Sequence record: PZ445448.1 | Strand: one strand, 5' to 3' | DNA: 64,000 bases | Source: a phage | Shown: one piece after another, positions 54,939 through 62,897 of the stretch | Layout: each line of letters begins with the position of its first letter | Position numbering within the stretch: position 1 is the first letter of the stretch | Translations under genes and position numbers: made by a program | Notes under the pieces: model-generated | Seen by the model: the letters and a program-made list of their open reading frames with translations, nothing else | Told to the model about the DNA's origin: nothing | The model's database searches: none

Positions 54939-55233
54939 TGCAGTCCTCCTTCTGTAGTAGGTCTTTTATAGGATAAACAAGTAAGTGTGGGTCGTAATAA
55001 CGTATAGTCCTATTCTGCCACACTATGAACTTTATTACAACCAAATTTACAATATCTTTATCACCATGTAGCCCAACACACACATTTGTCCATATTTTGT
55101 GGTTGAAGACCTTGCTATCGATGTAGATTTTAGTGTCAAACTTATCCTCCATTCTACCAATAAGTTTGATCAGCTCCTTCATCTGGTCGCCAAACACAGC
55201 ATCTTTTTCAAGATCTCTGGAATGCTTGTACAT
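54925..55233 (-). CDS. hypothetical protein
   Basis: ORF in array. Confidence 0.4.
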   Translation of the reverse strand: MYKHSRDLEKDAVFGDQMKELIKLIGRMEDKFDTKIYIDSKVFNHKIWTNVCVGLHGDKDIVNLVVIKFIVWQNRTIRYYDPHLLVYPIKDLLQKEDCNAVI

Positions 55234-55295
55234 AACTGACTACCTCACTGCATACTTTCCATAGTAAGTAAAGCCGGGTAATCCCGGCTATGTTG

Positions 55296-56009
55296 TTAAA
55301 TATACTCTGTTACATCCTTGAAGCTCGAAGGCTTCATAATCTTACCTTTACTGTCAAGGAATATAATAACTTTATTGCCGTTGTAGAACTCCTCTTTAGC
55401 AACGAAACCTTCGTAGCGACCACCAAAACGACGCTCAAGATCTTTAATCTCCAACTCGATGAGTTGTTCAGCAGGCATATCTGCACTGGCACCGTGTGAA
55501 TGCCGTAGATGGTTGATCCGTGCAAACTTACTGTCATTAGATTTTAGAACCTTCCGCATCATCCCACACACATCCCCGCTAAGCTGGAACAGCAAAGCTG
55601 TTGATAACTCCGCTAGTCGGTAAGCTGACGCTCTTTGCTTGGATGTGTTTTTCGCAGCGATCAGTGTATCATAGAACTCACCGATCTTGAACTTAAGACC
55701 TCGCGGATTATCAAACAGGTTTGACCACTTTTCGTGGTTATCATTAACAAGATAAGCTGCATAACTTGTGACAACGTGAAGATCGCAGGCCTCTTTTAGC
55801 AGGTGATCTCCACCATCACCTTTCTCCAGCTCTTCCAAAACCTCATTGAACTCTTCCTCAATGAAGCTAAGCTGTAATTCGAATGGTGTGTATGATTTTT
55901 TCACTTTAGCTGCCACACGGTTCCAGTTTTCCACCCAGTTGGCAGACCAAAGGTAGTTTTCAGGCTGGGACAGTTTTTCCAGGTTGTCGATCAGTTTAGT
56001 ATTCAGCAT
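55296..56009 (-). CDS. putative MazG-like nucleotide pyrophosphohydrolase
   Basis: IEEEFNEVLEELEKGDGGDHLLKEACDL resembles the MazG EExxE...D metal-binding helix. Confidence 0.4.
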   Translation of the reverse strand: MLNTKLIDNLEKLSQPENYLWSANWVENWNRVAAKVKKSYTPFELQLSFIEEEFNEVLEELEKGDGGDHLLKEACDLHVVTSYAAYLVNDNHEKWSNLFDNPRGLKFKIGEFYDTLIAAKNTSKQRASAYRLAELSTALLFQLSGDVCGMMRKVLKSNDSKFARINHLRHSHGASADMPAEQLIELEIKDLERRFGGRYEGFVAKEEFYNGNKVIIFLDSKGKIMKPSSFKDVTEYI

Positions 56010-56022
56010 TAAAGGTCTCCTT

Positions 56023-56784
56023 TTAAAGTTCCATAAAGTTTTCTACAGTTTCAATAAATGCTTTATCAGAGAAAGCGTCAACAGCACCGTTAAACCATAC
56101 AGGGATCCCGCGATCCTCATATTGATAAAGGTCGCTACGTGAAATGCCACTTCCATCTGCACTCTGCGAATCATACTTGTTTACAATCAGCAGTTTTGTG
56201 CCTTTACAAGTAGCAGGAAACAATTCCCAGTTAAAATTAATAACTGTGTTAGAACAACCTACCAGGATCACCATATCATTGCTTGTGAGAGATGTCAACA
56301 GGTCATACATGTCTGTATACTTAGGAGCAACCTCACCGAAGAACACTACATTGGGCTTAACCCAGGTATACTTGCCTGTATCTACCTCCGTGTATCCGAT
56401 ATTTTTAATTACATCATTACCTTCAGCATCTTCGTAGGTGATTTCAGGCAAATACCCGTGGACATGTAAAATATCTTCATGTTTTACACCAGCACGCTCC
56501 AGCAAATCATCTACATTGGTAGTAAGGTTGATCACACGACCAGACCAGCGGGAATACCACTCAGCGATCCGAAGATGTGCAAGGTTAGGATCAACACTGC
56601 CCAGAGCTACACGACGTGCATTGTAAAAGTCATGCACCTTATAGTAGTTCTTGGCAAAGGTGTGGATGTTGCACACCTCATCGATGCTGAAATTCTCCCA
56701 CATTGCAGTGCTACCAGATCGGAAAGTGGGAATACCAGATTCAGCGCTCAAACCAGCACCGGAGATAATAATCAGTCGTCGCAT
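56023..56784 (-). CDS. Sir2-family NAD-dependent deacylase / ADP-ribosyltransferase
   Basis: GAGLSAESGIPTFRSG Rossmann/NAD motif at N-terminus. Confidence 0.75.
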   Translation of the reverse strand: MRRLIIISGAGLSAESGIPTFRSGSTAMWENFSIDEVCNIHTFAKNYYKVHDFYNARRVALGSVDPNLAHLRIAEWYSRWSGRVINLTTNVDDLLERAGVKHEDILHVHGYLPEITYEDAEGNDVIKNIGYTEVDTGKYTWVKPNVVFFGEVAPKYTDMYDLLTSLTSNDMVILVGCSNTVINFNWELFPATCKGTKLLIVNKYDSQSADGSGISRSDLYQYEDRGIPVWFNGAVDAFSDKAFIETVENFMEL

Positions 56785-56792
56785 AAGTGTCC

Positions 56793-57143
56793 TCAGTAGA
56801 TGTTTTGTTTAATCTCTATTCCAAACTTCTTGAATGAGTCAGCAGCAAGCATAAATTTACGAGCTGCCGATGGATTAGAAGTATGCACGAAAATAATCAC
56901 GTTGTCAATAAGTGGTGGCTTTCCGAATACAAGTTTCTCCTCTAGCGCAGAGAAGCAGTCGTACCCTTCAAGCACTTCACCTAGATCATTGTCAAAATGC
57001 CACTCAGAAACGCGCCTGTAGAGCTTTCTATTATCGTTAATAAAATCCATGAACTCAGAAGAGTTCTTCAGCCAAAGAGCATCTTGGATTCCGTAATTTG
57101 ACGGATCTCTCAAGTCATCTAGCCACACAATCAACTTCTTCAT
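56793..57143 (-). CDS. hypothetical protein (start at MKKLIVW)
   Basis: ATGA overlap with RNA ligase stop; GAGGA SD. Confidence 0.4.
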   Translation of the reverse strand: MKKLIVWLDDLRDPSNYGIQDALWLKNSSEFMDFINDNRKLYRRVSEWHFDNDLGEVLEGYDCFSALEEKLVFGKPPLIDNVIIFVHTSNPSAARKFMLAADSFKKFGIEIKQNIY

Positions 57144-58075
57144 TGCATATAGTCCTCGTTGTGAAAATAGCAATCAAGTATCTCACGGCGTTCCTGCTCC
57201 AGGAGGCAGTTCCACACATCTTCTGTGTAATTGCTACGAATGAAGTTTACCATGCCATAAAACTCTTCGTCAATACGTTTAAAGATATCATCATCCCAAA
57301 TCTTCCAAGCTTTACCCCTCATTACGGCCTTCCGTGCCAAATAGTATGGAGACTTGATCTTCAGCTGCAGGTCATAAGGGTAGTAAGGCTTACGGATCAT
57401 ATACCCTTCGCCCCTTGTTTCTGCAGCTAATTCTTTTGCATAGCTGAACGGGATTTCACGCAAAGTGTGAGGACGTTTTGCACCAAGGTATTTGGCAATC
57501 CCATCTAAAGCTGCTTCTGGTAGCATTATTCCAGAATCATTATATCTGCAACCTATCAAATATGCGCCATGGTCTTCTTGAACAATATGCGGATCTGAAG
57601 GGTGACAAATTTCAAACATGAATGTCATGTTTTCATTGCCCATAACCTTCTTGATAAGATCTAAATTACCACATTGCTCTTGGATGGTTTCCTTTGCAAG
57701 GTTACAATATGGAGAATCAAGAGACCCGGTTGTTGAGAACAATAGGTCACCTTTATGAGATGATACCACACCAAGGAATCCGTTCTTTTTCTCTACCGCA
57801 GTCACAAGCTTATTGTCAGGCAGGTTGGTGGAGTTTTCTCCCAAGTTAAACACTTTTGTGAAGGGCCATGCCACAACATTTCCTTCATTACCTACAACAA
57901 TGCCTCGGCACTCCAGTAAACGAGGGGACAAATGCCATAAATTGTTGTAAAATACTTTTCTAGCATATTTATAGATCTTTAACCCGAGATCTGGGTAATA
58001 CCTACTGGTTACAAGACCTTTGTCAACTAGGTCGTCTGCATTAAAATACTTCATCATACGTTCCTCATTTGTCAT
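57140..58075 (-). CDS. RNA ligase 1-like (T4 RnlA family)
   Basis: LLECRGIVV, KVFNLGEN and VEKKNGFL align with T4 Rnl1 ALECRGIMF, KFFNLNEN and TKEDGSL. Confidence 0.6.
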   Translation of the reverse strand: MTNEERMMKYFNADDLVDKGLVTSRYYPDLGLKIYKYARKVFYNNLWHLSPRLLECRGIVVGNEGNVVAWPFTKVFNLGENSTNLPDNKLVTAVEKKNGFLGVVSSHKGDLLFSTTGSLDSPYCNLAKETIQEQCGNLDLIKKVMGNENMTFMFEICHPSDPHIVQEDHGAYLIGCRYNDSGIMLPEAALDGIAKYLGAKRPHTLREIPFSYAKELAAETRGEGYMIRKPYYPYDLQLKIKSPYYLARKAVMRGKAWKIWDDDIFKRIDEEFYGMVNFIRSNYTEDVWNCLLEQERREILDCYFHNEDYMQ

Positions 58076-58175
58076 TTTGTCAGTCTATCCTGCCACACAA
58101 ATAACCTAGTGTCAACACTTGAAATTAACAAAACAGTTAGATATACTATCGTTGAAATTAAAACGGAGGGTCACT

Positions 58176-58586
58176 ATGTCTAAAATGCTATATATCGTGC
58201 GTGGTCTACCAGGGTCTGGCAAATCAACACTGGCAAATGCGCTATCTTTAGAGGGTCTGTATCCACATTTTGAGAACGACATGTTCTGGTATGACGATGA
58301 CGGCAATTACAACTGGGATGCAAGTAAAGTAACACTCGCAGCGAAATGGTGCAAAGATAACGTAGAAGATATGATGCGTATGGGATACGACCGTATCGTG
58401 GTAAGTAATACGTTTACAAAAGAAAAACATGTGCAGGAATATGTTGACATGGCAATCAGTCATGGGTATAGTTATACCGTGATCGTGGTTGAAAACCTCC
58501 ACGGTAATAAAAGCATTCATGATGTTCCAGACAAGGTTGTGGATCGTATGGAACGCCAGCTTAAAAACTGCATTAAACTTAAATGA
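58176..58586 (+). CDS. P-loop kinase (polynucleotide kinase-like)
   Basis: Walker A GLPGSGKST; GGAGGG SD; divergent from RNA ligase gene. Confidence 0.55.
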   Translation: MSKMLYIVRGLPGSGKSTLANALSLEGLYPHFENDMFWYDDDGNYNWDASKVTLAAKWCKDNVEDMMRMGYDRIVVSNTFTKEKHVQEYVDMAISHGYSYTVIVVENLHGNKSIHDVPDKVVDRMERQLKNCIKLK

Positions 58587-58593
58587 GGAATGT

Positions 58594-59148
58594 ATGAAAT
58601 ACTTTGTAACAAGCGACACACACTTTCTCCACCAGCGGGTCATGGAGTTTGATTCATGTCAAAAACACAGATCTCAGTATGATCACAATCTTGACAGTAT
58701 GAATGCGGGAATCATCGCCGAATGGAACTCTGTTGTGTCACCTGCAGACACTGTGTTCCACTTGGGAGATATTGCGTGCACTAATGATAAGAATATCAAC
58801 AACTTACTTCCAGATATTCTAAATATGTTGAACGGACATATTATTCTTGTTCGTGGCAACCATGACACACGGACGACTGTCAGAATTATGAAAGAGTTCG
58901 GTCATGAGGTTGTAGATTATTACGAGCTTCGCCACAACAAGAATTTGATCTGTATGAGCCATTACCAGTTTGCAAAGTGGAACAGAAAGCCTCACGGATC
59001 AGTCCAACTGTTCGGTCATGCTCACGGAACCACACAGCAGTTGTTTGGCAGGCAGTTTGATGTCGGTTGGGATGTGTGGGGGAGACTCTTACCATTAGAA
59101 GAGGCATACCGTATTGCAATGAGTCTTGCTATTGACAGCTGGGAGTAA
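58594..59148 (+). CDS. metallophosphoesterase (calcineurin-like phosphatase)
   Basis: motifs TSDTHF, GDIA and RGNHD. Confidence 0.6.
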   Translation: MKYFVTSDTHFLHQRVMEFDSCQKHRSQYDHNLDSMNAGIIAEWNSVVSPADTVFHLGDIACTNDKNINNLLPDILNMLNGHIILVRGNHDTRTTVRIMKEFGHEVVDYYELRHNKNLICMSHYQFAKWNRKPHGSVQLFGHAHGTTQQLFGRQFDVGWDVWGRLLPLEEAYRIAMSLAIDSWE

Positions 59149-59195
59149 TCCCTGCTATTTTAAAGAAAATTGCCACACAAGGAGAATCAGGAGAT

Positions 59196-59546
59196 ATGAA
59201 AGATGGGGATAAGCTGCTATATCTTAAAGTCCCCCTTGAAATACTGTCTATGTCAAAAGTTTTGAATGACACAACTGGGGAGGTTGTTGTTCTTGACTTG
59301 TATGACAAGATCGTATACTGCTACCTGCACAACTGGTATAAGCTTGGAGGAAGTTCACGCTTCACACCCAGCACAAGGAAAATTGCAGCAGATGTTGGGA
59401 TAAAGAAAACAAAAGCAGCAGCGTGCGTTAAAACTTTAGAATGTGCAGGAGTGGTTGAAATATCCACACAAGGGAGAGGTAAAAGATGCACATTTTCCAA
59501 AGTTTTGCCACCAGAAGAGGTTATTCGAATGTCAACAACTGGTTAG
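59196..59546 (+). CDS. putative DNA-binding protein (winged-helix-like)
   Basis: ORF with SD; C-terminal segment TRKIAADVGIKKTKAAACVKTLECAGVV; immediately upstream of hairpin repeat array. Confidence 0.4.
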   Translation: MKDGDKLLYLKVPLEILSMSKVLNDTTGEVVVLDLYDKIVYCYLHNWYKLGGSSRFTPSTRKIAADVGIKKTKAAACVKTLECAGVVEISTQGRGKRCTFSKVLPPEEVIRMSTTG

Positions 59547-59620
59547 ACCAGTAAAAACTTAAATATCTGTACTATAAGGATTCGTATGTTTTATGTTCGC
59601 TCTGGAACAGAGGTTAGTAA

Positions 59621-59703
59621 CTGTCCGTGATACGGACACTACTGTCCGTCACGCGGACACATCTGCCCGTAATACGGACACTAACTGTCCGTGATACGGA
59701 CAC
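59621..59703. repeat. four tandem 21-22-bp units each holding a 7-bp-arm hairpin (CTGTCCGTGATACGGACAC)
   Basis: units start at 59621, 59642, 59663, 59685; TGTCCGT / ACGGACA arms. Confidence 0.7.
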
Positions 59704-59850
59704 ATAAAGAATATAACTAAAATAACTAAATAATAAAAAATAAAAGATCTAGTACTTATGGTACTAAGTACATATACTTAACTTATGTAGAATATACTAG
59801 ATCCTAAGTACCATGTTTTAAATTTATTACTTACTATGGGTAGTGTCGGC

Positions 59851-60100
59851 CCTTCATTGGCACTCGCCTACGAGGGGCGAGATGCCGGGCCTCCCTGGTG
59901 CACACAATAACAGAAGTGCATACATGCAGGTCTGGTAACATGTGTGGGAGCGAAGCGATAGCGCAGGCCAAAGGCCGAGCACTGATGTGGACCACCGACG
60001 AAAGCTTGCCAGCGCCGTAAGGAGTCGGTTGAGAGTCTCCCGCGCGAGCTTGGATGAAGTTTATGTGTGGAAACGGACAAGAAGGCCCCTAAATCGCTCC
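59851..60100. ncRNA. candidate structured RNA or regulatory element (GC-rich island)
   Basis: abrupt GC rise; nested hairpins such as GGCACTCGCC-TACGAG-GGGCGAGATGCC; no credible ORF. Confidence 0.25.
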
Positions 60101-60206
60101 ACAGCTATATAAACTATACCAGGTAAGGCAATCGCACCAGTTTGATAGAAAAGCTCGTTACAAAGCGATACAGTGAGTTTTTCTATAACTTGAAGAGGAG
60201 GTAGTT

Positions 60207-62084: not shown

Positions 62085-62159
62085 GCCCTGTTAGCTTAGT
62101 GGATAAAGCAGCGGCCTTCTAAGCCGTTGACACTGGTTCGAGTCCAGTACGGGGTGCCA
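62085..62159 (+). tRNA. tRNA-Arg (anticodon TCT)
   Basis: cloverleaf folded by hand: acceptor GCCCTGT/ACGGGGT, anticodon loop CTTCTAA, T-loop TTCGAGT, encoded CCA. Confidence 0.75.
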
Positions 62160-62163
62160 AATT

Positions 62164-62250
62164 GGGGAGTTATCCCGTAGAGGTAGCGGTGTAGACTGTA
62201 AATCTATTGTCATTGCGACTCGGGTGGTTCGACTCCACCACTCCCCACCA
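62164..62250 (+). tRNA. tRNA-Tyr (anticodon GTA), long variable arm
   Basis: acceptor GGGGAGT/ACTCCCC, anticodon loop CTGTAAA, T-loop TTCGACT, CCA. Confidence 0.7.
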
Positions 62251-62364
62251 AATTTATATTTTTAGATGCATAAATAATACAGATAATGGCATTGATATTT
62301 ATCGTCGTTTATACTAGTCACTAACTGCTCGAAAATCAGTGTCATTATCAGTATAATTTATAAA

Positions 62365-62455
62365 GGAGGGTAGGGAGCAATGGTGCTCAAGCGGTCTTGA
62401 AAACCGTCCCGTTGAGGATGACTCGATGATGGTTCGATTCCATTACTCTCCGCCA
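62365..62455 (+). tRNA. tRNA-Ser (anticodon TGA), long variable arm
   Basis: acceptor GGAGGGT/ACTCTCC, anticodon loop CTTGAAA, T-loop TTCGATT, CCA. Confidence 0.65.
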
Positions 62456-62553
62456 CATTGTTGACCTTGTAATTAAGCGAAAGCCGGAAGCAGAACCGGA
62501 TTATCAAATGTTACAGTCGTCATCGCCGACTAGCAACATGGTCAACATACTGA

Positions 62554-62650
62554 GCTAGGTAAGCCCTTTGGCAAGGGCGAGGATTTTTAATCCTGAAAAT
62601 AGACGAGGTAGTCGTTGAATACATAGGTGGTTCGATTCCATCACCTAGCA
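62554..62650 (+). ncRNA. 97-nt tRNA-like element with irregular anticodon region
   Basis: perfect 7-bp acceptor GCTAGGT/ACCTAGC, D-arm, T-loop TTCGATT, but about 10-24 nt too long and no clean anticodon stem. Confidence 0.35.
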
Positions 62651-62657
62651 CCTTTTT

Positions 62658-62733
62658 GCTGATGTAGCACAATCGGTAGTGCAATTGATTTGTAATCAAT
62701 AGGTTGTAGGTTCAAGTCCTGCCATCAGCACCA
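62658..62733 (+). tRNA. tRNA-Thr (anticodon TGT)
   Basis: acceptor GCTGATG/CATCAGC, anticodon stem ATTGA/TCAAT loop TTTGTAA, CCA. Confidence 0.8.
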
Positions 62734-62734
62734 A

Positions 62735-62809
62735 GGCCCTGTAGCTGGAAGGTTCAAGCAAGCGACTCATAATCGCCAGACGGTGGTTCAATTCCACCCA
62801 GGGCCACCA
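62735..62809 (+). tRNA. tRNA-Met or Ile2 (anticodon CAT), elongator type
   Basis: acceptor GGCCCTG/CAGGGCC with G1-C72, anticodon loop CTCATAA, CCA. Confidence 0.7.
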
Positions 62810-62820
62810 AATAGTAAATA

Positions 62821-62897
62821 CTCCGCGTAGCTCAGCTTGGTAGAGCGCCTGATTTGGGATCAGGAGGTCGAGTGTTCGAATCACTCCGTGGAGACCA
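62821..62897 (+). tRNA. tRNA-Pro (anticodon TGG)
   Basis: D-arm GCTCAGCTTGGTAGAGC, anticodon stem CCTGA/TCAGG loop TTTGGGA, T-loop TTCGAAT, CCA. Confidence 0.8.

Follow-up and report, generated by a model that had tools for sequence, protein, structure and literature searches.

Phage T4 repairs tRNA-Lys that has been cut by the anticodon nuclease PrrC with two proteins, Pnkp (PseT) and the RNA ligase Rnl1 (RnlA). Here we discuss six neighbouring genes in phage DNA, a stretch of 64,000 nucleotides from record PZ445448.1 (in the following, the window; positions are counted from its first letter). Three of them are of prime interest: an ATP-dependent RNA ligase of the Rnl1 clade (57140..58057, minus strand, 305 residues), a standalone P-loop protein that is predicted to be a polynucleotide 5'-kinase (58176..58586, plus strand, 136 residues) and a binuclear metallophosphoesterase (MPE; 58594..59148, plus strand, 184 residues), which is predicted to heal RNA ends bearing a 2',3'-cyclic phosphate or a 3'-phosphate. 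The other three encode a cyclic-phosphate-processing receiver-like protein (cREC), a sirtuin (Sir2) and a MazG-like protein. We consider it likely that these genes make up a split RNA healing-and-sealing system, assembled from two divergent operons and acting on broken RNA. The computed support consists of family membership, intact catalytic residues, fold similarity, a conserved neighbourhood and gene fusions. From these we infer a counter-defence role against anticodon nucleases, as well as the substrates, the order of the steps and the parts played by cREC, Sir2 and MazG.

The likeness to the T4 system is evident. Both systems have to carry out the same three reactions, the ligase belongs to the same clade with its nucleotidyltransferase residues aligned, and the kinase shares the fold, the P-loop and the general-base aspartate of T4 Pnkp. 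The differences are equally clear. In T4 Pnkp the kinase and the phosphatase are joined, whereas in the window they are separate proteins, and the phosphatase is a binuclear MPE instead of a DxDxT (HAD) enzyme. The kinase has no equivalent of T4 R38, the ligase is devoid of the C-terminal tRNA-specificity domain of T4 Rnl1, and cREC, Sir2 and MazG come as extra genes. A first-pass annotation, made from the letters and a list of open reading frames, had already proposed an Rnl1-like ligase on the minus strand facing a P-loop kinase and a calcineurin-like phosphoesterase on the plus strand, with kinase and phosphatase as separate proteins and the latter not of HAD type. All three frames are indeed present, two of them for kinase and phosphatase, the MPE motifs are intact, and family searches agree with each assignment (see below). 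Its joint reading as 5'-kinase, 3'-end healing and ligation likewise finds computational support in residues, in folds and profiles, in neighbourhoods and in fusions.

A second relative is the bacterial Pnkp/Hen1 system, as in Clostridium thermocellum Pnkp (CthPnk for its kinase) or Capnocytophaga Pnkp1-Rnl-Hen1. There, too, a P-loop kinase and 2',3'-healing by an MPE precede the action of a ligase; the MPE as a 3'-healing enzyme is thus not new, since bacterial Pnkp already uses one. Pnkp, however, is a fusion of its domains, with a lambda-phosphatase-type MPE that goes undetected by the phage MPE profile, and its ligase domain is absent from the Foldseek matches of the window ligase. A Hen1 methyltransferase was not found by Pfam among the six cassette proteins. 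The fungal and plant pair Trl1 and Tpt1 combines a ligase, a kinase and a cyclic phosphodiesterase with subsequent NAD-dependent removal of a 2'-phosphate, and Trl1 ligase domains are structural matches to the window ligase with a template modelling (TM) score of ~0.6, yet a match at the sequence level is missing. Moreover, the phosphodiesterase here would be cREC and not a 2H enzyme, the phosphotransferase a sirtuin and not Tpt1/KptA. Related, too, are trifunctional proteins of Leptolyngbyaceae cyanobacteria, in which the ligase family of the window (31-34% identity) and its kinase family are joined in one polypeptide with an MPE in between. They differ in being cellular and fused, and a search with the profile of the phage MPE clade misses their MPE domain; cREC, Sir2 and MazG were not detected in these trifunctional loci.

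The cassette itself is not novel: it is already annotated and published in silico. Iyer, Burroughs, Anantharaman and Aravind (2022, Viruses 14:1977, PMC9503650, section 3.7.3) describe the same six-gene neighbourhood as a sirtuin-centred type 2, with Escherichia phage V5 and Proteus phage Mydo as prototypes. In that section, which is purely computational, Sir2 and MazG are suggested to be components of one repair system instead of separate counter-defence genes, a point missed by the first-pass annotation; the sirtuin is supposed to remove 2'-phosphates in the manner of KptA/Tpt1. The fusion proteins are not mentioned there, nor is the kinase variant R108L discussed below. While that published neighbourhood is centred on the sirtuin, our counts make kinase, MPE and ligase the widespread core. 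Our literature searches found neither a biochemical or genetic study of the V5 cassette nor a report of a phage sirtuin acting on RNA.

The strongest evidence in this analysis that the three core proteins act on one substrate comes from other genomes, where they are fused or occur in repeated and rearranged neighbourhoods. Single open reading frames of 421-432 residues that combine kinase and ligase were found in 11 viral loci; they fall into two lineages with 65% identity to each other. In Cardiobacteriaceae, an MPE of the phage clade comes after each of the kinase-ligase fusions. The Leptolyngbyaceae proteins, retrieved by a scan of bacterial genomes, comprise ~710 residues in the order AAA_33 kinase, Metallophos, RNA_lig_T4_1 (e.g., L238:4726-6861), and one of their genes has RtcB 1.6 kb downstream. 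An 'RNA ligase' profile of 737 positions, PHROG 8238, is matched by both the kinase and the ligase of the window. The same fusions and repeated neighbourhoods speak for a polynucleotide kinase.

The counts were obtained from 80 viral contigs with kinase homologues (42-50% identity) and 80 with ligase homologues (36-49%), the open reading frames of which were scanned with hidden Markov models built from the window proteins; 78 kinase-centred and 78 ligase-centred loci could be counted. For the kinase, a search with the single protein yielded one near-identical contig, and an alignment-based search provided the loci. The kinase lies within 3 kb of the ligase in 65 of the 78 ligase-centred loci, which come from unrelated viral contigs, and directly beside it in 48. 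The MPE is found within 3 kb in 50/78 kinase-centred loci, always on the same strand, and in 52/78 ligase-centred ones, while an Rnl1-type ligase occurs within 3 kb of 21 of the 78 kinases. Where it is missing, another RNA ligase (PF09414 plus an OB domain) can directly follow the kinase, in one case a CCA-adding-type nucleotidyltransferase. The remaining genes are rarer: cREC is present in 18/78 kinase-centred and 11/78 ligase-centred loci, Sir2 in 2/78 and 11/78, MazG in 3/78 and 13/78, and all 11 ligase-centred loci with Sir2 also have the MazG-like gene. Our conclusion is a core of kinase, MPE and ligase, to which cREC, Sir2 and MazG were added in restricted lineages. Some metagenomic phages have a conserved protein of 318-366 residues between kinase and MPE (L015:2052-3149, L019:8387-9484, L036:8387-9340, L028:3261-4295, L038:7348-8382 and L039:5119-6114); a check of whether it might be another ligase showed neither a Pfam match nor a KxDG or other ligase motif.

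The ligase matches Pfam RNA_lig_T4_1 (PF09511) with E=1.4e-14 and 54.9 bits at a cutoff of 28.3, and PHROG 562 with 8e-66. Searching the PDB with the single sequence returned nothing; the family profile, built from 38 homologues, found the T4 Rnl1 structures 2c5u, 5tt6 and 9do4 with E=1e-21. Rnl3-type ligases followed far behind in that search (7e-5), and Trl1 ligases went undetected by sequence. The nucleotidyltransferase motifs I, III, IV and V are present as K96-x-N98-G99, F154-E155, E223-G224 and K239-x-K241. Throughout the 38 sequences K96, G99, F154, E155, E223, G224, K239 and K241 are invariant, and N98, which takes the position of T4 D101, is kept in more than 90% of them. In the alignment with T4 Rnl1, LECRG meets LECRG and PFTKVFN meets PMEKFFN; K96, G99, E155, E223, G224, K239 and K241 correspond to T4 K99, G102, E159, E227, G228, K240 and K242. 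Equally invariant are R57, K74 and F76, the counterparts of T4 R54, K75 and F77, which are reportedly essential according to mutagenesis in the Shuman laboratory. The sole essential T4 residue without a counterpart is K119, which is T116 in the window ligase.

The AlphaFold2 model of the ligase (predicted local distance difference test, pLDDT, 92) comprises a nucleotidyltransferase domain followed by three short C-terminal helices (270-305); the profile alignment to T4 Rnl1 ends at T4 residue 269. In the C-terminal module R296 is invariant and R297 nearly so. Foldseek was of no help in assigning the clade: Rnl1, Rnl3 and Trl1 are inseparable with a TM score of ~0.6 each, and the assignment to Rnl1 therefore rests on sequence profiles. 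With NCBIfam TIGR02308, the T4 RnlA equivalog, the ligase scores 38 bits, far below the cutoff of 242. We take it for a member of the Rnl1 clade that, given this score and the absent C-terminal domain, is not an orthologue of T4 RnlA. The label 'tail fibre attachment' in some ligase records is a carry-over from T4. The open frame extends to 58075, but the start is probably the ATG at 58057, because it is preceded by a GAGGA Shine-Dalgarno sequence, because Escherichia phage EduardKellenberger (Bas59) is annotated with that start, and because homologues begin there.

The kinase gene has a GGAGG 8 nucleotides upstream of its ATG. Its product matches Pfam AAA_33 with E=1.9e-10 and a PHROG family with 4e-57, and it belongs to a standalone family of ~130 residues with 4775 homologues. 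The P-loop reads GSGKST; K16, S17, E33, D35, an SNT motif, H109 and H115 are invariant, and the ENRHG motif that contains H109 is nearly so. A PDB search with the single sequence gave nothing useful. The family profile has its best PDB matches in a Rhizopus kinase, Capnocytophaga Pnkp1, T4 Pnk and CthPnk, and D35 aligns with the general base D35 of T4 Pnk. The AlphaFold2 model (pLDDT 90) is most similar by Foldseek to the kinase domain of T4 Pnk, to CthPnk and to the tRNA kinase PSTK, with TM scores of 0.73-0.78; against nucleotide (UMP-CMP), shikimate and adenylate kinases it reaches 0.45-0.55.

A doubt voiced from the outset was that the protein might be a nucleotide kinase. Fold, profile, neighbourhood and fusions favour a polynucleotide kinase instead, and this assignment, as far as sequence and model can tell, is supported. 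The doubt can be extended to the entire cassette, which might be an assortment of unrelated enzymes of nucleotide pools or signal degradation: a nucleoside or nucleotide kinase, an MPE hydrolysing cyclic nucleotides, a MazG acting on alarmones or dNTPs and an NAD-consuming Sir2, with the ligase merely nearby. In favour of this view are the breadth of the superfamilies AAA_33, Metallophos and MazG, the labels of the kinase in some GenBank records, which say no more than 'ATPase' or 'NTP hydrolase', and the term 'nucleotide kinase' in the neighbourhood section of Iyer et al. (PMC9503650). We nevertheless regard such a chance assembly as extremely improbable, since kinase-ligase and kinase-MPE-ligase fusions exist, the kinase adjoins two different RNA ligase families, and its fold and profile matches point to polynucleotide kinases. 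PADLOC returned weak matches for the kinase (best E=1.4e-05) and none for the other five proteins, which also argues against this view. With a scan that was empty except for these weak P-loop matches, the idea that the cassette consists of defence genes was dropped.

The MPE matches Pfam Metallophos and Metallophos_2 with ~3e-6 and 27.9 bits, barely above the cutoffs, and PHROG 547 with 1.9e-51. The motifs of a binuclear centre, D8-x-H10, G58-D59, G88-N89-H90, H123 and G141-H142-x-H144, are each kept in at least 90% of 93 members. The structure closest to its family profile is the uncharacterised Aquifex protein aq_1665 (PDB 1xm7, 9e-25), followed by GpdQ-like enzymes, MJ0936 and YfcE.

The six genes are organised in two back-to-back operons, kinase-MPE, possibly continued by a helix-turn-helix gene, on the plus strand and ligase-cREC-Sir2-MazG on the minus strand. 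The MPE starts 7 nucleotides past the stop codon of the kinase. The gene for cREC (56793..57143, minus, 116 residues) overlaps with its ATG the stop codon of the ligase (ATGA), which amounts to translational coupling. It is followed after 8 nucleotides by that for Sir2 (56023..56784, minus, 253 residues), a member of a phage-specific clade, and after another 13 nucleotides by the last gene of the operon, which encodes the MazG-like, all-alpha NTP pyrophosphohydrolase (55296..56009, minus, 237 residues). The first-pass annotation had placed Sir2 and MazG immediately adjacent to its three genes. Both are present, but Sir2 is not next to the ligase: cREC, which the first-pass annotation had overlooked, lies between them. 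The spacer of 118 base pairs between the operons (58058..58175) probably holds the promoters of both, as judged from a pattern match, a sigma-70-like TTGAAA-17-TATACT at 58119-58147 (plus, 10 of 12 matches) ~29 nucleotides before the kinase ATG.

All this is conserved far beyond chance, since 117 of 121 matching phage records keep at least 80% of the region. In a nucleotide comparison with phage records the 5-kb region proved to be 99.0-99.4% identical to Vequintavirus (rV5-like myovirus) Escherichia phages, among them EI-SP-GF, I29, Bas59 and MaxTheCat, the last two from the BASEL collection; the window itself thus belongs to a V5-like Vequintavirus. The GenBank labels of these relatives already include RNA ligase, polynucleotide kinase (or ATPase), phosphoesterase and sirtuin.

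The three additional proteins are well preserved, too. cREC matches Pfam PF20274 (5.7e-14, 53 bits, cutoff 27) and PHROG 1479 (5e-34), and the acidic pocket of a receiver-like domain (D9, D10, D51, D53) is conserved, as are H87 and N90. The domain was defined in a 2021 paper on jumbo phages, and the passages devoted to it predict a cyclic phosphodiesterase (PMC7824862, PMC9503650). Sir2 matches Pfam SIR2 (PF02146) with 6.9e-28 and 98 bits at a cutoff of 24; its NAD-binding and catalytic histidine motifs, GAGxSxxSG..FR (G9-A10-G11, F21-R22), T88-T89-N90-V91-D92 and H109-G110, are invariant. The CxxC pair of a zinc ribbon between H109 and the PNVVFFGE motif is absent in nine of nine members of the clade. 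The MazG-like protein has no Pfam match, but it fits PHROG 671 (1.9e-21) and conserves the residues of the EExxE...D motif, E52, E53, E56 and D76.

If the cassette heals and seals RNA, as we believe, the sequence of events could be the following. A metal-independent ribonuclease, be it a host anticodon nuclease, a toxin or a Cas13-type effector, would cut RNA, most plausibly a tRNA in its anticodon loop, and leave a 2',3'-cyclic phosphate and a 5'-OH. The MPE would remove the phosphate from the 3' end, possibly after cREC has opened the cyclic phosphate; the kinase of 136 residues would phosphorylate the 5'-OH; the Rnl1-type ligase would adenylate the resulting 5'-phosphate and seal the break. 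Sir2 and MazG might take care of a 2'-phosphate or of by-products derived from NAD.

The main rival assigns more important roles to these accessory proteins. It is the model of Iyer et al., as outlined in their section on the neighbourhood (PMC9503650), and resembles the route via Trl1 and Tpt1. cREC would open the cyclic phosphate to a 3'-OH and a 2'-phosphate, the kinase would phosphorylate the 5' end, and the ligase would seal the break, leaving a 2'-phosphate at the junction. This 2'-phosphate would be transferred to NAD+ by the sirtuin, and MPE and MazG would clear the ADP-ribose-cyclic-phosphate without taking part in RNA healing. The tight operon of ligase, cREC, Sir2 and MazG, with its ATGA overlap and its gaps of 8 and 13 nucleotides, fits this proposal, and so do the acidic pocket of cREC and the intact NAD-binding and catalytic histidine motifs of Sir2. 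R296 and R297 of the ligase recall two arginines in the C-terminal domain of Trl1 that are responsible for its 2'-phosphate specificity (PMC12440814). Further, Sir2 of the same clade is found beside a HAD-type RNA-repair phosphatase in T5-like phages: in contig L173 (8001-9645) a zinc-less sirtuin, 57% identical, adjoins a gene for anaerobic ribonucleotide reductase and lies ~320 base pairs upstream of a HAD_SAK_2 'Swiss Army Knife' RNA-repair phosphatase, an independent link to RNA ends. A ligase, kinase or MPE of the window families was not found within 8 kb of this locus.

Yet by sequence the ligase is a much nearer relative of T4 Rnl1 (1e-21), which does not join ends with a 2'-phosphate. 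The core is widespread without cREC or Sir2, each of which accompanies 11 of 78 ligases; in two related phages of ~149 kb Sir2 is encoded ~30 kb away from the ligase cluster, and mostly it stands alone (see below). A report of a sirtuin acting on an RNA 2'-phosphate was not found either, and none of the six cassette proteins matched the Pfam families of KptA/Tpt1. We therefore hold this route to be unlikely as the principal one, although it could coexist with healing and sealing as sketched above. In its most ambitious form, the idea of Iyer et al. casts the zinc-less sirtuin as a 2'-phosphotransferase that uses NAD+ and acts on RNA, analogous to Tpt1/KptA without being homologous to it, and cREC as a 2',3'-cyclic phosphodiesterase that is new and needs no metal; with the short Rnl1-type ligase, both would provide V5-like phages with a complete Trl1/Tpt1-style joining of tRNA from unrelated folds. 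We consider this form of the idea unlikely.

Are the genes needed at all? For the sister phage Bas54 transposon data are available from the HIDEN-SEQ preprint (10.1101/2025.11.20.689424). On E. coli K-12 the orthologues bas54_0206 to 0211 received many insertions, with mean counts of 88-405. All six tolerate insertions, which fits genes with an accessory or conditional role. T4 rnlA is different in that its N-terminal domain is essential and takes no insertions, whereas the Bas54 ligase gene does take them. HIDEN-SEQ also showed that a T-even phage conditionally requires its Pnk orthologue on a clinical isolate, and the approach can thus detect such functions.

Several observations weigh against a healing-and-sealing system that counters anticodon nucleases. 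On K-12 and on two uropathogenic isolates alike, bas54_0206 to 0211 showed no significant depletion (10.1101/2025.11.20.689424). The ligase is without the all-helical C-terminal domain of ~120 residues (~255-374) that provides T4 Rnl1 with its specificity for tRNA. In the kinase, the position of T4 R38 and Cth R41, which hold the 3'-phosphate of the acceptor, is occupied by W38 in the window and by F or W in the entire family. The MPE profile detected neither lambda-phosphatase nor the phosphatase domain of Pnkp1 in the PDB. It is the lambda-phosphatase/Pnkp clade for which RNA 2',3'-phosphoesterase activity has been established (PMC2190708), and because the MPE falls outside it, we infer its Pnkp-like role instead of reading it from kinship. 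In 40 of 54 Sir2-centred loci no member of the remaining five families lies within 8 kb of Sir2; repair genes are nearby in 13, all on contigs of ~140-150 kb. Since it is alone so often, its membership in the system rests on two lineages. Finally, the arginine of the ENRHG motif, which belongs to the lid of the kinase and is kept as R in 81/87 loci and 115/120 database matches, is replaced by leucine, and this in the window only.

The last point is new, unlike the already published neighbourhood, and deserves comment. The codon at 58497-58499 is CTC (Leu108) in the window and CGC (Arg) elsewhere, due to a T instead of a G at 58498. This T is the single difference in 411 nucleotides from the kinase genes of MaxTheCat and EI-SP-GF; a phage record identical over the whole kinase gene was not found, the best reaching 410/411. 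In CthPnk the lid arginines R120 and R123 hold the gamma-phosphate of the donor NTP, and R108 may be equivalent to one of them, as judged by its position. Given the near-invariance of the lid arginine and the role of its putative counterparts in CthPnk, the R108L change may have weakened or inactivated the kinase. The other possibility is that a sequencing error produced the T.

Instead of repairing what the host has damaged, the enzymes might serve the RNA metabolism of the phage itself, e.g. maturation or repair of its tRNAs or repair of damage by its own nucleases. The phage does encode tRNAs: a cluster of seven genes (62085..62897, plus; detected by ARAGORN and Rfam) begins 3 kb downstream, and it includes an odd tRNA-Lys(UUU) of 97 nucleotides. 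This neighbourhood, the occurrence of CCA-adding-type enzymes next to members of the kinase family and the lack of a defence-related phenotype on all three hosts are in line with such a domestic role. The six genes, however, are dispensable on K-12, which is incompatible with essential tRNA maturation, a splicing endonuclease is not evident, the insertion in the tRNA-Lys sits in the variable region and not at the intron position, and the three core genes are also found in numerous phages and in cellular genomes that do not have such a tRNA. We rate a domestic role as highly improbable, below the Trl1/Tpt1-like route; a special role in the splicing of the odd tRNA-Lys was ranked low on account of the dispensable genes and the misplaced insertion.

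The tRNA-Lys(UUU) is worth a look in its own right. Its gene (62554-62650, plus) specifies an anticodon loop UUUUUAA and, in the variable region, an insertion of ~26-31 nucleotides with its own hairpin of 5 base pairs. ARAGORN miscalls it as a tRNA with a four-base anticodon, and Rfam scores it with 35.5 bits. Bas59 has the identical tRNA, while the related phage L092 has an ordinary tRNA-Lys(UUU) of 76 nucleotides. Among the targets of anticodon nucleases, tRNA-Lys(UUU) is the classic one.

If RNA healing and sealing by the cassette holds true, V5-like phages would have a second means, of a different build, to counter immunity by tRNA cutting, and the cassette would affect their host range on strains equipped with PrrC, RloC, PARIS, retron/PtuAB or Cas13-type systems. 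V5-like phages are common coliphage candidates for therapy, and tRNAs are among their genes. Together, the small kinase and the MPE of the aq_1665 type represent a large and widespread family of predicted enzymes, with thousands of the kinases in metagenomes. The activities proposed for the sirtuin and cREC, if true, would be new chemistry for both folds. Fortunately, the saturated transposon library of Bas54 makes the system directly testable.

Some features of the surroundings remain to be mentioned. Downstream of the MPE a helix-turn-helix protein of 116 residues is encoded (59196..59546, plus), the membership of which in the cassette is uncertain; its matches to HTH_36 (8e-5) and DUF6945 (2e-5) are both below the Pfam cutoffs. 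Its Bas54 orthologue (bas54_0212) received a mean of 13.6 insertions, as compared to the 88-405 of the cassette genes (10.1101/2025.11.20.689424), and the gene may therefore be important for growth. Between it and the next sizeable frame, ~660 base pairs (59547-60206) contain no long open reading frame on the plus strand, and Rfam at its gathering thresholds found no match there; in the counterpart of this piece in Bas59 three tiny hypothetical frames are annotated. Lastly, 18 records of a 'Campylobacter phage' (e.g., C12 and C14) are ~97% identical to positions 55000-60000 of the window, which suggests that these public genomes are mislabelled or contaminated.

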